Shown: one piece after another, positions 486 to 19,034 of the stretch
Layout of the letters: the number at the start of each line of letters is the position of its first letter
How positions within the stretch are numbered: the stretch's first letter is position 1
Assembly (NCBI GenBank): GCA_045635825.1
Contig: JAZTWM010000004.1
Location: 7,363 to 71,362 of the forward strand
Reading direction: 5' to 3'
Source: Candidatus Enterousia sp.
Lineage (GTDB): Bacteria; Pseudomonadota; Alphaproteobacteria; Rs-D84
Length of the DNA stretch: 64,000 bases
The notes under the pieces: generated by a model
The model's input: only the letters and a program-made list of their open reading frames with translations
What the model was told of the DNA's origin: nothing
Databases searched by the model: none
Translations under genes and position numbers: made by a program

Positions 486-517
486 TAAGATTAAATCAAT
501 TTGATTTATCAATAAAA

Positions 518-549
518 GTCCGCAATCTAGTATGTTTGCGGATTTTTTT
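518..549 (+). terminator. rho-independent terminator directly after rpsK
   Basis: GTCCGCAA-loop-TTGCGGAT hairpin followed by a run of 7 T. Confidence 0.75.
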
Positions 550-632
550 ATGGGTTTATTTTTTAAAAAATACTTGCGGATTAATTTTTTTCGTACTATC
601 TTGACTCTTAATACACAAAAAAGGATTTATAA

Positions 633-1163
633 ATGAAGAAAAACGCATTGCCACAACTGAATGTGGCCAAACAGGAAGATTTGTTAAGTACGCCAATTAA
701 TCAAATGGTGGTATATGATCATTTAACAAAATCTTTAAATAGAACGCATTATGCAGGTCGTGATTTGTATTGGTTTGCAGGTGATGCGATTGCCAACATA
801 GCAAAAAAGCGTATTGATAATGCTTTGTTAGCAGAAGGTAAACAGGTCGTTGCAAGTGCTGTTAAAGGTGTTCCAGAAATGTCTTGGAACGGTGATTTGG
901 AATTGATTCAATATCCTTTGGCTGAAAAGTTTTCACAAAAGATGGCGGGTAATTTAATTGTTTTTAATATCCATACCGGCTTGTATGAAGTTTTGCCAGA
1001 TGGTAATTGGTTGGGTGTTGATCCTGTTGTTAATGGTATTATACCACGTTTGACCAGCATGAATCAGCATTCTGGCATGCATGCATTTTTGGTTGCAATG
1101 GGTCGTAACGATAAGGCACGCGACAAGATTGTTGCAGAGTTTGCAAAGTCACGTCAAAAATAA
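633..1163 (+). CDS. hypothetical protein, cytoplasmic-looking, no recognisable family
   Basis: 176-aa ORF, ATG preceded by AAGGA; no signal peptide or TM segment; no motif I recognise. Confidence 0.55.
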   Translation: MKKNALPQLNVAKQEDLLSTPINQMVVYDHLTKSLNRTHYAGRDLYWFAGDAIANIAKKRIDNALLAEGKQVVASAVKGVPEMSWNGDLELIQYPLAEKFSQKMAGNLIVFNIHTGLYEVLPDGNWLGVDPVVNGIIPRLTSMNQHSGMHAFLVAMGRNDKARDKIVAEFAKSRQK

Positions 1164-1180
1164 TATTTGTGGGACAGTTG

Positions 1181-1597
1181 ATGAAAAATTACTTCAGTAC
1201 TGTTGTAGAGTATGTAAAAAACTTGTTTCCTGGTCGTGCAGCGGTGGTTGTGCCAAGTGATAACCCAAAACTGGATGCAGAGGTTTTGTATTCTTTGGCG
1301 ACGGATTTGTTTTATACGAATACACTTGGTGGGGGACGGGACTGGTACTGTTTCACACGTGTTTGTGATATGCCGATTGCAAAATATATTTTGGCCAGTA
1401 ATGGTATAGATCCGGCAAAGTACGGTCGTCGTTTTTTGTGTAACCCGACCCCTATGTTTCGTGTACGTATGTCCGAGTTGCATAATAATTTGTCGGCACG
1501 TGACTTTGTAGAGCGTGTTATGGATGTGGATGCCGGTAAAATGGATATGGTGCGTGTGAATGCCCGTATTGCAGAGATTAGGCAAAAATTGAAATAA
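1181..1597 (+). CDS. hypothetical protein
   Basis: ORF-track 1169-1597 begins with GTG; first ATG at 1181 (MKNYFSTVVEY...); 18 nt after previous stop, probably co-transcribed; terminator follows. Confidence 0.5.
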   Translation: MKNYFSTVVEYVKNLFPGRAAVVVPSDNPKLDAEVLYSLATDLFYTNTLGGGRDWYCFTRVCDMPIAKYILASNGIDPAKYGRRFLCNPTPMFRVRMSELHNNLSARDFVERVMDVDAGKMDMVRVNARIAEIRQKLK

Positions 1598-1627
1598 AAA
1601 AAATCCCCGTTTTGGGGATTTTTTTTA
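1596..1627. terminator. bidirectional hairpin terminator
   Basis: A-run, ATCCCC-GTTT-GGGGAT, T-run; lies between convergent genes ending at 1597 (+) and 1625 (-). Confidence 0.8.
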
Positions 1628-2482
1628 TCGTTGTCTTTGTAACATTATTACGTGTTCTTCTTTGTTGGTTGTGTCCATATACATTTTGGCCCAATCCCTG
1701 AAGCGTCTGGATAATGTTCGGTATTGTTCAAGGTTTTTGTCCAATGCCAGACCAGGGCCAGTTTGAACCAGTATGAATCCGCCAGGACGTACGTGTTGGC
1801 GTAGGTTTAGCAGTGTTGGTTCGATTTTTTTAGGTGCCCATTCAAAAATATTGGACAGGTTGATTACATCATATTGTTTATCTAGTTTTGTATGAACATT
1901 GATTGCATCTGACCATATGAATGGGAACGGTGTTTGAACCTGTGATTGCAATTGTTCGTATGATGTTGGGGTCAAAGAAGGGTACAGTTCTGTGCCCAAG
2001 CCATTTGAAAATATTTTGTAACCATCCATAGATTGCAGTACGTGGGCGCTGTCTGGGGACAGGTTTGGTAAAACTTTGTCCATGCCTTTGACCTGGGCGT
2101 GGTGTGGTGCACGATGCAGTTCATGCAACATTTTGTTGTATTGTTCATATGGCATTTTGGATTGCAGTGCGGCAACCTTAATATCTGATATCACCTTGGC
2201 AAATGCGCTGATGTCAAATGTATCGATGTTTTTAGCCCCCGCCAGTTTATAATACAGCGCCTGGTCGCCACTGCCAGCGATTGTTAACACATTGTCGTGT
2301 GGTACATTTTGTGTCAGGCCTGTGGTGTATGCCAGTTCTTCATTTGTTGAAACATATGCGGGCATATATTTTAAGTCTGAATCTGGAAACATAAAGTATG
2401 CGGGTACCAATGCACCATATGTATCTGTTGGTTTGCCGTAGTGTATTTTTGCATCTTGTGCGTTAAACTTTGATAAAGCCAT
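1625..2482 (-). CDS. SAM-dependent methyltransferase-fold protein, DUF3419/BtaA-like
   Basis: 285-aa ORF with GGAGGA RBS. VLTIAGSGDQALYYKLAGAKNIDTFDISAFAKVISDIKVAAL resembles the DUF3419 N-terminal SAM-binding region, and DVINLSNIFEW / LRQHVRPGGFILV resemble later methyltransferase motifs. Confidence 0.55.
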   Translation of the reverse strand: MALSKFNAQDAKIHYGKPTDTYGALVPAYFMFPDSDLKYMPAYVSTNEELAYTTGLTQNVPHDNVLTIAGSGDQALYYKLAGAKNIDTFDISAFAKVISDIKVAALQSKMPYEQYNKMLHELHRAPHHAQVKGMDKVLPNLSPDSAHVLQSMDGYKIFSNGLGTELYPSLTPTSYEQLQSQVQTPFPFIWSDAINVHTKLDKQYDVINLSNIFEWAPKKIEPTLLNLRQHVRPGGFILVQTGPGLALDKNLEQYRTLSRRFRDWAKMYMDTTNKEEHVIMLQRQR

Positions 2483-2628
2483 ATTTATCCTCCATTGCTC
2501 CTGTTAATATAGTACAAAAATACAGAATGTCAACAGTGTTGTTGTTTGGGTTTACAGAAAGTCGTGATTTTTTGCTTTTATAAAATTGGAATGTGTGATA
2601 AAATCCAATAAATTGGAAGGGATATTTT

Positions 2629-17461: not shown

Positions 17462-17491
17462 AAAAAAGACCCGCCAAATGGCGGGTTTTTA
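17461..17491. terminator. bidirectional hairpin terminator
   Basis: A-run, ACCCGCC-AAAT-GGCGGGT, T-run, between convergent genes. Confidence 0.85.
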
Positions 17492-18628
17492 TAAACTGTT
17501 TATTAGTTCAAGAATTTCTGCGGTTATTTTTTTGGGGTTAAAACGGTTTAATGATAACTGACTGTTTTTGATTATTTCTTGTCGTGGAATACGATTATGA
17601 TATATGTTTGACATGATTTGTGATAAAGCATGTTTGTCGCCAATATTAAATAATAGACCTGCTGTGCCATTTAAGAGTATTTCTTGTGCACCGTTTTTGT
17701 GCTGTGTTGAAATGTTTAGTGTGCCAACAGATGCCGATTCTAATAATACCATTCCAAAACCTTCGCTGTGACTGGATAATATGTGTGCCATAGATTTTTG
17801 CATATAACCAAAGGGATTAGTTTGTGTGCCTAGGAAGATAATATGTTCTTTGGCGGTGCTTTGATTTGCATGTTGTTCAAGACCGGTTCGATTTGGGCCG
17901 TCCCCAATAATCAATAGTTTTATATCGGTTGTATTTTCAGTTCTTAGGAAAATGGTAAATGCATCAATTATTGTATGGATGTCTTTCGGGCTGCCTAGTC
18001 TAGATATAGAGCAGAAGTATCGACCGGGATATGTGGGGCCTGTTTTTGCTTTGGTAATAATATGTTCTGGTGTAATAGGATTATATATCCGAATGATTTT
18101 GCTGGAATGTGATGGATAGTGTAATGTAAACTCGTCTTTAAATTCATCTGTTAATACAACCATTTTATCATAATATTTCAACCTGTTGATAAGTTTGCTT
18201 TTTTGAAAGAAGTCAAAAGAGCCATGACACCATGTTATTTTTGGGGTTTTGATATGCCGTAGTTCCTTGAAAAAGGATGCGTTTTTATAGTCTATGTATA
18301 TATCATGATTGTTGATATGGAATATTGAACGTCTGTACATTTTATATAAACTGAAGATTAGTTTACGCAGATTTTTGAGAGGGAAAAAATTTGTGCTTTT
18401 TTTTAGGTTTTCAAAATATGGTAACATGGGATAGATGACTTTTAGTTTTATTTCTGGGTGATGGTTAAACCAATCTTGGTAATATTTTTCTTGTAGTTTG
18501 GATTGCATATATACTGATATTTTTAGGTCGGGATATTTTAATAGTTCTTCTAGGGTGGAAATAAATACTGTTTCAACGCCCCCAACAATCATGTCGGGAA
18601 TACAAAAGGCAATTTTTTGTTTGTTCAT
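17489..18628 (-). CDS. glycosyltransferase, GT4-like (GT-B fold)
   Basis: ORF-track start 18709 is rejected because a terminator hairpin lies inside that extension. ATG at 18628 gives MNKQKIAFCIPDMIVGGVETV... EGFGMVLLESASVGT matches the E-x7-E GT4 motif. Confidence 0.85.
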   Translation of the reverse strand: MNKQKIAFCIPDMIVGGVETVFISTLEELLKYPDLKISVYMQSKLQEKYYQDWFNHHPEIKLKVIYPMLPYFENLKKSTNFFPLKNLRKLIFSLYKMYRRSIFHINNHDIYIDYKNASFFKELRHIKTPKITWCHGSFDFFQKSKLINRLKYYDKMVVLTDEFKDEFTLHYPSHSSKIIRIYNPITPEHIITKAKTGPTYPGRYFCSISRLGSPKDIHTIIDAFTIFLRTENTTDIKLLIIGDGPNRTGLEQHANQSTAKEHIIFLGTQTNPFGYMQKSMAHILSSHSEGFGMVLLESASVGTLNISTQHKNGAQEILLNGTAGLLFNIGDKHALSQIMSNIYHNRIPRQEIIKNSQLSLNRFNPKKITAEILELINSL

Positions 18629-18658
18629 TTTCTTACTTCTTTTTTGTTCGTTTTTTAT

Positions 18659-18886
18659 TGGAAAAAGAAAAGACCACATATTTTGTGGTCGGGAAGTTAA
18701 GAAAATCATACACTAAATGACCCCACCGGTTTTTGGAGTTTTTCCTGTTGTATGACCGGTGGCTTCCCGACATTATGGTGTCGAGAAAATGGCACGATGT
18801 GTGCCTGGTATTAATGGATTACGACAGTTAATGCCGTAGTGTACGGGTTTTCTTACGACCCCGAAGCCTTATCCCTAAGGTTTCGA
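18659..18886 (-). promoter_or_regulatory. candidate structured 5' leader (riboswitch/attenuator-like) or independent sRNA upstream of the glycosyltransferase gene
   Basis: Downstream of the promoter at 18893-18921. The minus-strand RNA has local hairpins CCUUA/UAAGG, GGGU/ACCC, CGUA/UACG, GGCAC/GUGCC, CGACA/UGUCG and CCACCGGU/ACCGGUGG. It ends in GACCACA-loop-UGUGGUC plus UUUUCUUUUU (18659-18690), 30 nt before the ATG at 18628. Confidence 0.5.
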
Positions 18887-18892
18887 TTTTGG

Positions 18893-18921
18893 ATTATATA
18901 TAGTAGGGCGTTGGATTTCAA
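18893..18921 (-). promoter_or_regulatory. sigma70-type promoter, TTGAAA-N17-TATAAT
   Basis: Read on minus strand: perfect -10, 5/6 -35 and 17-nt spacer. Divergent from the rpoA promoter. Confidence 0.65.
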
Positions 18922-18934
18922 GTCGTTTATCTAT

Positions 18935-18963
18935 TTGACTTTTGGGTTTTGTTGATATAAAAT
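18935..18963 (+). promoter_or_regulatory. sigma70-type promoter for rpoA, TTGACT-N17-TAAAAT
   Basis: 5/6 matches in both hexamers and a 17-nt spacer. About 70 nt upstream of the rpoA ATG. Confidence 0.6.
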
Positions 18964-19034
18964 ATCGACCGCATGTGCGTTGTGTACATGGCCGTTTTGG
19001 CGAAAATGATAAACTAAGCTAAAAGGAAACTTAA

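Follow-up and report, generated by a model that had tools for sequence, protein, structure and literature searches.

A stretch of 64,000 nucleotides from a Candidatus Enterousia genome (contig JAZTWM010000004.1, forward-strand positions 7,363 to 71,362; hereafter the window) carries two alpha-operon genes, rpsK (ribosomal protein S11; 102–485, + strand) and rpoA (19035–20063, + strand), 18.55 kb apart. We consider it likely that this arrangement arose by an ancient uncoupling of the alpha operon, after which an autonomous rpoA-rplQ cassette relocated repeatedly, in a species-specific way, into an adjacent island of envelope-protein genes, with the added insertion of a strain-variable GT4 glycosyltransferase cassette. 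The evidence that carries this reading is the polarity of synteny across the lineage, the conservation of terminator, promoter and leader sequences, an empty site in a relative and a presence/absence polymorphism of the GT4 cassette; where transcription starts and stops, and by what molecular mechanism relocation occurred, are points that we infer from these patterns. Judged by gene order, about 15 of the 18.5 kb consists of conserved lineage genes (blocks D and E, at 1625–8879 and 9950–17461) that appear to have lain ancestrally downstream of rplQ, and it is the 2-kb rpoA-rplQ cassette that appears to have changed position, by about 17 kb downstream, in what is formally a swap of adjacent segments. 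The initial annotation had recognized the separation correctly, and its description of the 18.5 kb as an insert of unrelated genes gives way to one in which D and E are lineage genes that sit downstream of rplQ in most species.

The host lineage was placed in Candidatus Enterousia (Alphaproteobacteria, order Rs-D84) by a scan of species-representative genomes together with a published description (PMC12306168). In that scan, S11 identity is at least 94% within the lineage and below 60% outside it; lineage members are named Candidatus Enterousia or "Alphaproteobacteria bacterium" and derive from human, ruminant and termite guts. An S11 identical to that of the window occurs on hundreds of gut-metagenome contigs. 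Enterousia genomes measure about 0.75–1.0 Mb and encode a very limited metabolism, and these bacteria are probably obligate symbionts or parasites (PMC12306168). We compared the window with loci of relatives and with conspecific contigs (labeled L001 and so on), all of which are metagenome-assembled genomes (MAGs) or metagenome contigs.

We measured the rpsK-rpoA gap, taken from the end of the first gene to the start of the second, in every locus retrieved (about 60 related loci). Within Enterousia it takes values of 113, 113, 125, 125, 127, 208, 316, 467, about 640 and about 700–1000 nt, continues through 1.2–4.6 kb, 6.1–6.9 kb and 9.5 kb (9522 nt) to more than 10 kb in three loci, and reaches 18,550 nt in the window; basal members of the lineage keep a spacer of 113–127 nt. 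The rpsM-rpsK spacer, by comparison, is nearly constant at about 160 nt across lineage loci, and the rpsK-rpoA junction is therefore a lineage-wide variable site of which the window is the most extreme case seen, in keeping with the proposal of a variable hotspot at this position. The corresponding gap is 26–138 nt in other alphaproteobacteria and about 650–990 nt, including rpsD, in other phyla. Hence the absence of rpsD between the two genes, correctly reported in the initial annotation, is uninformative: it is the alphaproteobacterial norm, and the outgroup spacer leaves no room for the gene.

Comparison of the two sides of the junction indicates that uncoupling came first. The rpsK gene, whose 127-aa product is identical to a protein matching Pfam PF00411, closes the S10-spc-secY-rpsM-rpsK cluster, and its position and strand at the cluster end follow the canonical gene order (gene calls on L001–L010 and L101). 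Its leader (43–101, + strand; ATAAGGTAGAGATTAACACCATAGTTAATTGAAGACATC...) is conserved among lineage loci and contains no promoter-like hexamers, and rpsK is thus probably the final gene of the upstream transcript, with which it would be co-transcribed. A GC-rich hairpin directly follows the rpsK stop codon in 32/32 S11-anchored sequences (the window and 31 loci), usually with a T-run behind it. In the window this predicted intrinsic terminator spans 514–549 (+ strand), slightly longer than the previously proposed 518–549, and consists of a 12-bp stem and U7 (−16.9 kcal/mol; z = −4.6 against shuffles). A simple terminator scanner missed it because the hairpin loop exceeds 8 nt. Terminator-like sites as a class are enriched in the window (35 against 20.1 ± 4.4 expected).

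On the other side of the gap, the putative rpoA promoter TTGACT-N17-TAAAAT (18935–18963, + strand; TATAAAAT in the alignment) owes its credibility to conservation. A bare consensus match is no better than chance, with 58 promoter-like sites in the window against 53.6 ± 6.3 expected. An alignment of 33 rpoA upstream regions presents, in order, a TTGACTTT −35 element, a (T)ATAAAAT −10 element, a variable hairpin, an invariant GGYGAAAATRATAAACTAAGC and a Shine-Dalgarno sequence. The TTGACT promoter is conserved in nearly all of these regions, comprising nearly all aligned crown-group loci as well as L041 and L128, which bears out the promoter assignment made earlier. It is kept where rpsK lies only 113–208 nt away (L041, L128 and L033); in L041 and L128 the 113-nt spacer is made up of a stop codon, terminator, promoter, leader and ATG, and nothing else. 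Because terminator and promoter are already in place at a 113-nt gap, the predicted uncoupling of rpsK from rpoA predates any insert.

The rpoA gene, identified by Pfam matches to RNA_pol_L, RNA_pol_A_bac and RNA_pol_A_CTD on an identical protein, is preceded by a 5′ leader (18970–19034, + strand) composed of the variable hairpin, the invariant motif GGCGAAAATGATAAACTAAGC (18999–19019) and the Shine-Dalgarno sequence. The window contains a single copy of this 21-nt motif (0 expected). A 3-bp GGC/GCC pairing frames it, and just 5′ of it is a covarying hairpin, in which compensatory changes are found and pairing is 86% against 20–45% in slid controls. Every lineage locus aligned has the motif, with few substitutions. 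This holds even for the termite-gut members L131, L134 and L140, in which the motif accompanies a large hairpin and the TTGACT promoter is missing. Outgroups at 59–60% RpoA identity have neither the leader motif nor the TTGACT promoter. This distribution suggests that the leader was gained first, then the terminator and promoter, and that genes subsequently accreted in the gap between the two. Strong comparative evidence from terminator, promoter and leader thus favors the earlier view that rpsK and rpoA are separate transcription units. It also bears on whether the arrangement is an ancient, lineage-wide feature: the uncoupling appears to be ancient, but only this species has the 18.5-kb arrangement.

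The origin of the intervening DNA emerges from gene order in relatives. Block D comprises genes for a DUF3419-like methyltransferase (1625–2482, − strand; Pfam), a Cys-rich protein of 986 aa (Cys986; 2629–5589, +), a membrane protein of 346 aa (TM346; 5613–6653, −) and a Cys-rich protein of 697 aa (Cys697; 6786–8879, +). All four, with order and orientation kept, lie directly 3′ of rplQ in L003, L039, L104 (a 914-kb contig), L108 and L139, and a partial block D follows rplQ in L025, L028, L032, L034, L040, L041 and L128. In the deep-branching L128 and L131, too, D genes come after rplQ. Block E comprises genes for Cys-rich proteins of 684 aa (Cys684; 9950–12004, −) and 288 aa (Cys288; 12026–12892, −), a 225-aa protein (g12; 13042–13719, +) and a 1207-aa protein (AT1207; 13838–17461, +). 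An OmpA/CarboxypepD_reg gene and then block E follow block D in L104 and L187, as they do from Cys697 onward in L186 and L188. Orthologues of Cys684, Cys288 and AT1207 are found in the same order downstream of D in L186–L188 and L135, with a short unmatched open reading frame (ORF) at the g12 position; in L104, block E can be followed up to the beginning of a 1212-aa gene that sits where AT1207 would be. The identity of Cys986 to its L104 counterpart (64%, against 33% to the closest paralogue in the window) makes their orthology clear at the sequence level.

The order rpsK-(small genes)-rpoA-rplQ-D-OmpA-E is thus seen in L104, L108, L139, L003 and L039, and partially in the deep-branching L128 and L131. 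From these loci we reconstructed an ancestral order rpsK-B-[rpoA-rplQ]-D-O-E-F, in which F denotes a further block at 21045–29682. The order in the window is rpsK-g02-g03-D-g08-g09-E-[GT4]-[rpoA-rplQ]-F. The site that the cassette now occupies is empty in L188, where block F comes right after the AT1207 orthologue, with only a single hairpin between the two and rpoA-rplQ absent. In the conspecific L012, the sequence just after the rplQ terminator, AAAAATCCCCAAATGGGGATTTT, corresponds to the hairpin at the empty E/F junction of L188. Since D and E are conserved in order 3′ of rplQ and the site is empty in L188, the cassette appears to have been relocated, rather than the operon split by foreign DNA.

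Other relatives show the cassette in further contexts. In L103 and L144, rpoA-rplQ lies between Cys986 and TM346 (a third context); it is inverted in L037, and block D inversions are present in L112 and L135. In L007 and L027, block D comes straight after rpsK and no rpoA is found within 10 kb. Our trees are single-protein neighbor-joining trees, and that of SecY has no outgroup. In the RpoA tree, contiguous forms are basal and the window species is sister to L103, whose cassette is also relocated; in the SecY tree, L007 and L027 fall beside species with the ancestral order, neither of them close to the window species. These placements suggest that the D block came to separate rpsK from rpoA on at least three independent occasions, a count that is approximate given such rough single-gene trees.

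In the model that we favor, the alpha operon of Candidatus Enterousia would have been cut into autonomous modules. The rpsK gene would close the S10-spc-secY-rpsM-rpsK transcript at its intrinsic terminator, and rpoA-rplQ would form a self-contained cassette with its own sigma-70-type promoter, 5′ leader, structured rplQ leader and terminator. Uncoupling would be the first step, already present at the 113-nt gap. The gap between terminator and promoter could then have become a neutral landing site, in which variable small genes now take up between 0 and about 9.5 kb, depending on the species, and the essential cassette would have been freed to change position. In the window species it would have come to rest where the 1207-aa gene and the Cys265 gene of block F once met, leaving most of the DNA between rpsK and rpoA as the lineage's conserved envelope-protein island (D and E). 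Candidate mechanisms include tandem duplication of [rpoA-rplQ-D-E] with reciprocal loss, recombination at palindromic terminators or REP-like elements (described below) and serial inversions. All three are compatible with the data, which do not discriminate among them.

Several considerations weigh against this model. Every genome compared is a MAG or a metagenome contig, and the promoter, the terminator and the autonomy of the cassette are predictions from sequence conservation. Exchanging two neighboring segments is a symmetric change, such that rightward movement of rpoA-rplQ is equivalent to leftward movement of the D-E island. More than one event separates the window from the ancestor, since g08 and g09 lie where an OmpA-family gene is expected, and no single clean transposition accounts for the difference. 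The figure of at least three events is approximate, given single-protein neighbor-joining trees and a SecY tree without an outgroup, and rpoA was not located within the available downstream DNA of L024 (6.7 kb) or of L007, L022 and L027 (10 kb). Lastly, the identical hairpins that flank the cassette, to which we now turn, could be convergent terminators rather than scars of relocation.

These hairpins bear on whether the cassette is actively mobile, excising and reinserting by way of flanking palindromic terminators or REP-like repeats, as opposed to having moved passively by duplication and loss or by serial inversions. The palindromic hairpin CCCGCCAWWTGGCGGG has two copies in the window, at 17470 and 20988, against 0.01 expected: the left copy is a terminator hairpin (CCCGCCAAATGGCGGG; 17470–17485) and the right (CCCGCCATTTGGCGGG; 20988–21003) is the predicted rplQ terminator. 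Together with their flanks they form a 30-nt inverted repeat (90% identity; right arm 20988–21017) that brackets [GT4]-rpoA-rplQ. Among the species tested, this repeat is limited to the window species, where the cassette moved, as active mobility would lead one to expect. Matching hairpins around rpoA-rplQ in every species were looked for and rejected; the apparent matches in L019 and L127 are artifacts of contig ends. The concentration of REP-like elements at the 3′ ends of rpsM, rpsK and rpoA, the occurrence of the cassette in at least three other contexts and in inverted orientation, and the recurrence of D-block separations of rpsK and rpoA would also suit a mobile unit. Against this, no recombinase linked to the locus was detected with Pfam, NCBIfam or PADLOC, and no target-site duplications were found at the cassette. 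Hairpins of the form CCCGCC...GGCGGG are a common type of rplQ terminator in other species, so the likeness of the flanks may be convergent, and the other relocated context (L103) lacks matching flanks. Duplication with asymmetric loss, a scenario already put forward for the same cluster outside this lineage (PMC8046335), accounts equally well for a swap of adjacent blocks. We therefore regard active mobility as doubtful. We are similarly hesitant about a broader proposal, which we offer as speculation: that rpoA-rplQ is a recurrently mobile essential-gene cassette, that a lineage-specific family of palindromic terminator/REP-like elements first punctuated every boundary between rpsM, rpsK, rpoA and rplQ and now mediates repeated relocation and inversion within a hypervariable envelope-protein island, and that the novel rpoA and rplQ leader RNAs replace the stoichiometric control once provided by co-transcription.

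The reading put forward in the initial annotation, in which an 18.5-kb block of acquired or locally expanded surface-protein genes was inserted and split a co-transcribed rpsK-rpoA pair, now appears quite improbable. It does account for 13 ORFs on both strands across 18.55 kb (13 by our count, in agreement with gene calls on independent contigs, rather than the 14 first listed), junctions in other species do gather variable genes, and one genuine insertion, the GT4 cassette, is present. However, orthologues of about 15 kb of D and E lie downstream of rplQ in most species, basal ones included; terminator and promoter coexist at a 113-nt gap, so uncoupling was not caused by insertion; and the present rpoA-rplQ site is empty in L188. 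Composition also points away from an insert. The GC content of D and E is native, as is their GC content at third codon positions (GC3): the intervening genes range from 0.38 to 0.48 in GC around a window mean of 0.427 ± 0.028, with GC3 likewise resembling the rest of the window, and GT4 (0.332) is the single outlier. The coding-strand GC skew of block D and E genes is consistent with their present orientation. The borders had been described as unmarked, and this is accurate insofar as no integrase, recombinase or transposase was found among the 13 intervening ORFs (Pfam, NCBIfam and PADLOC), no tRNA within 1–32000 and no att-type direct repeats at the borders; what that description missed is the 30-nt inverted repeat that brackets [GT4]-rpoA-rplQ.

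A chimeric contig joining the end of the ribosomal-protein cluster to an unrelated rpoA region, by misassembly or misbinning, is the least credible explanation and barely warrants consideration: although the data all come from metagenomes and an assembler might in principle be misled by repeated hairpins, both junctions are reproduced on independent contigs from other samples, with L101 (41 kb) and L102 carrying rpsK-g02-g03-D-g08-g09 as in the window (L101 continuing through E into the 1207-aa gene, L102 stopping at the start of the Cys684 gene), L012 (72 kb), L011 and L013–L018 carrying E-(GT4)-rpoA-rplQ-F, the right side of the window reproduced on L011–L020 overall, and the left-side and right-side sets overlapping by about 10 kb.

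The GT4 cassette is a true strain-variable insertion and the only recent one in the gap. It measures 1,441 bp (17491–18931, − strand) and encompasses a GT4 glycosyltransferase gene (17489–18709, −; Pfam and NCBIfam) and a structured 5′ region (18710–18890), about 180 nt long, that folds into five hairpins (z = −4.3). The cassette is present in the window, L011 and L013 and missing from the conspecific L012, L014–L018 and L020; in contigs without it, only 21–22 nt (GTTTGTTTTTGGGGAATAAATA) separate the terminator of AT1207 from the −35 element of rpoA. Its borders are exact, with the upstream terminator on one side and the rpoA −35 hexamer on the other. Its presence is independent of the flanking haplotype, given that L012 is 97–100% identical to the window throughout yet lacks GT4. 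We base the assignment as an insertion on this polymorphism and on low GC (about 3.4 SD under the window mean), not on identity: the 99–100% identity of GT4 in diverged strains was considered as proof of recent horizontal transfer and rejected, as housekeeping DNA in those strains is also 98–100% identical and divergence is confined to the surface-protein genes. GT4 homologues at 40–70% identity are few, one of them located within a glycosyltransferase cluster elsewhere. A promoter-like TTGAAA-N17-TATAAT (18921–18893) reads divergently 14 nt from the rpoA −35 element, and through these back-to-back promoter-like sites the insertion may change the upstream context of the rpoA promoter.

Downstream of rpoA, the gene for L17, rplQ (20527–20967, + strand; Pfam PF01196 on orthologues), may also be separately transcribed in this species, which goes beyond what the initial annotation had claimed. 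A promoter-like TTGCAA-N16-TAGAAT lies upstream of it (20403–20430, + strand), with a function that we propose from sequence. This element, as TTGCAA-N16-TA(G/A)AAT, is kept in species with an expanded rpoA-rplQ spacer and absent where the spacer is about 100 nt. Between it and rplQ is a candidate leader RNA (20437–20526, + strand) with two hairpins, P1 at 20446–20475 and P2 at 20488–20505, and a Shine-Dalgarno sequence at 20516–20521. In 28 aligned sequences, paired cells amount to 95.5% (35–51% in slid controls), compensatory changes affect ten pairs, and the covariation score of 0.545 (about 0.1 in controls) stands above all shuffled and slid controls. The two-hairpin structure is present in all lineage members aligned but one, the termite-gut L134. 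We propose it as a candidate new ribosomal-protein (L17) leader RNA. In the whole window, an Rfam search at gathering thresholds matched only a tRNA-Ala gene, and a permissive search of 17400–21100 returned only sub-threshold chance matches, on terminators; the rpoA leader, the rplQ leader and the GT4 5′ region thus appear to belong to no known family.

The space between rpoA and rplQ also contains three tandem copies of a palindromic element of about 103 nt (20058–20385; z = −8.3), one more than in L012. They belong to a repetitive extragenic palindromic (REP)-like family of about 100 nt with the core TCATGTAG..GTACACTAC; the window has a further copy at 40123–40228 and the right half of one at 1–42, in the rpsM-rpsK spacer. 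That half copy was delineated by aligning relatives' rpsM-rpsK spacers, and in the corresponding spacer of L101, from the same species, a complete element with the TCATGTAG...GTACACT core is visible. With nhmmer we found 84 elements in 1.07 Mb of lineage loci, 4 of them in the window. Fifty of the 84 lie just 3′ of rpoA and 17 just 3′ of rpsK, and others are in the rpsM-rpsK spacer. The elements are palindromic, multi-copy and intergenic and form long hairpins, and no cognate transposase was seen in the window. The family appears to be lineage-specific, having been seen so far in this lineage only. A second palindromic repeat family (for example, GTCATTCCGTGGCTTGACCACGGAATGAC) occupies extended non-coding DNA between rpsK and rpoA in relatives (L104:5180–6000; L103:13000–13060).

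Among the remaining genes between rpsK and rpoA, g02 (176 aa; 633–1163, +) and g03 (142 aa; 1169–1597, +) belong to the variable gene pool beside rpsK. Both are found in the same-species L101 and L102 at 97–98%, and a g03 homologue precedes the DUF3419 gene in L103. Two further small ORFs, g08 (106 aa, secreted; 9019–9339, +) and g09 (168 aa; 9417–9923, +), have homologues between rpsK and rpoA in many other species and in the window replace the OmpA/CarboxypepD_reg gene of L104 and L186–L188. The possibility that the small ORFs are related to one another was rejected upon comparison. Neither they nor the Cys-rich proteins matched Pfam, NCBIfam or PADLOC. Pfam support in the gap is limited to the DUF3419/methyltransferase and GT4 proteins, both as initially assigned, and to a sub-threshold ankyrin match in AT1207.

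The earlier description of AT1207 as ankyrin/subtilase-like stands only weakly. Its Ank matches fall under the Pfam threshold, and it is locally similar to the S8 subtilase encoded in the window (61943–63835), including a YGxGMxxLERATRP motif, with weak likeness also in the C-terminal region; the S8-like region is degenerate and the catalytic GTS motif is missing. The C terminus, read by eye, possibly forms a beta-barrel. Given the missing motif, AT1207 may be a pseudo-protease autotransporter-like protein. It has 635 homologues and is conserved across the lineage, with no curated domain other than Ank.

Four of the intervening proteins are Cys-rich (3.4–6.9% Cys), as first noted, and related genes continue in block F (21045–29682). 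This block contains genes for Cys-rich proteins of 265 aa (Cys265; 21045–21842, −) and 889 aa (Cys889; 21848–24517, −), infA (24570–24815, −) and genes for Cys-rich proteins of 728 aa (Cys728; 24966–27152, +) and 840 aa (Cys840; 27160–29682, +). The lone minus-strand infA has the same placement between Cys-rich genes in L188; an overlapping + strand ORF (24546–24905) is probably spurious, and an exact-sequence look-up of the window's InfA returned no record. The initial annotation interpreted the clusters after rplQ and infA as repeated insertions; we find them instead to be syntenic neighbors conserved in L188. Including a further Cys-rich secreted-protein gene region at 40404–41678, Cys-rich genes occupy 27% of the window, in a genome of less than 1 Mb. 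Cys986, Cys840, Cys728 and Cys889 are paralogues, the remaining Cys-rich proteins are distinct, and a CxxxYxxCMDxFC-type motif is common to several.

Cys986 begins with a signal-like hydrophobic N terminus and also has a Gly/Ala-rich hydrophobic stretch and a C-terminal Cys-rich beta tail. It has more than 1,000 homologues without a Pfam domain, and those with a named source are hypothetical proteins of uncultured Alphaproteobacteria. A PDB profile search gave no match. An AlphaFold2 model built from 27 sequences is of low confidence and mostly helical (predicted local distance difference test score [pLDDT] 61.8; predicted template modeling score [pTM] 0.39), and Foldseek found no PDB structure similar to it at E ≤ 0.001. 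In conspecific strains, Cys-rich genes are 75–90% identical by sliding identity, compared with 98–100% for housekeeping DNA. This fits exposed, fast-evolving envelope proteins with a putative surface location. The Cys684 gene contains a CAA/CAG-type repeat (10160–10303, − strand) encoding a poly-Q/PAQQ tract; orthologue lengths of 684, 700, 736, 776 and 798 aa among strains suggest variation in repeat length.

At the scale of the whole window, GC skew is positive over all 64 kb (about +0.1 to +0.4), strong, uniform and independent of gene strand; this places all of it on a single replichore and marks an unusually strong strand asymmetry. Its sole tRNA gene, tRNA-Ala(TGC) (45027–45102, − strand), is solitary, without a neighboring rRNA gene in the window.

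Few bacterial gene arrangements are as strongly conserved as the S10-spc-alpha cluster, and the usual explanation is selection for co-transcription and balanced stoichiometry. A lineage with a small genome (about 0.75–1.0 Mb) and a probable dependence on hosts appears to have dismantled the last operon of this cluster, and the natural series from 113 nt to 18.5 kb, inverted forms included, offers a way to study the tolerance of essential transcription and translation genes to uncoupling and the substitutes for operon-level control. For annotation, the case is a warning that a large apparent insert in a conserved operon can reflect conserved genes that have moved. The rplQ leader and the REP-like family add new candidate RNA and DNA elements for databases.

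Compared with the canonical alpha operon (rpsM-rpsK-rpsD-rpoA-rplQ, without rpsD in Alphaproteobacteria), the Enterousia arrangement keeps gene content, relative order, strand and the position at the cluster end. It differs in having a predicted terminator after rpsK and a dedicated rpoA promoter and leader. The window differs further in the 18.5 kb between rpsK and rpoA, which includes opposite-strand genes, in an rplQ that probably has its own promoter and lies 3′ of three REP-like hairpins, and in the lack of an Rfam alpha-operon leader match. Order and strand are thus those of an intact single-unit operon, whereas the genes are not adjacent and an internal terminator and promoter are predicted. 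Genomic islands at hotspots offer another likeness, in variable content at a fixed junction and in strain-level presence or absence of GT4. Unlike such islands, the gap in the window has no integrase, tRNA target or direct repeats, its composition is native except for GT4, and most of its genes are lineage-core. Patchy strain presence is seen for the 1.44-kb GT4 cassette; blocks D and E occur throughout the lineage.

REP sequences and bacterial interspersed mosaic elements (BIMEs) of enterobacteria, and the palindromic elements of Rickettsia, are palindromic, multi-copy and intergenic, about 100 nt long and located at gene 3′ ends. The Enterousia family resembles them in its 3′-end siting, tandem copies and possible role as attenuator or recombination substrate. 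It differs from REP/BIME in its unrelated sequence, its concentration at the ends of alpha-operon genes and the absence of an associated transposase among our findings. The S4-binding alpha-operon leader (Rfam RF00140) is an autoregulatory ribosomal-protein leader RNA. Like ribosomal-protein leaders, the candidate rplQ leader has a conserved, covarying structure immediately 5′ of the Shine-Dalgarno sequence of a ribosomal-protein gene; it differs from those of the RF00140 type in having no Rfam match and in lying upstream of rplQ rather than rpsM.

Alterations of this ultra-conserved cluster by insertion or rearrangement have been described before, with 163 events in 204 species over more than 2 billion years (2019, PMC6735719), and the rearrangements detailed there fall at other places in the cluster, where they part operons or pairs of genes. 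The candidate mechanisms are alike (duplication with asymmetric loss, inversions and transposition), but the Enterousia break falls inside the alpha operon, is hypervariable within one genus and appears to have recurred independently. We therefore place the window within a known kind of event, operon-cluster rearrangement, to which this work would add the Enterousia variant, two candidate leader RNAs and a putative REP-like family.

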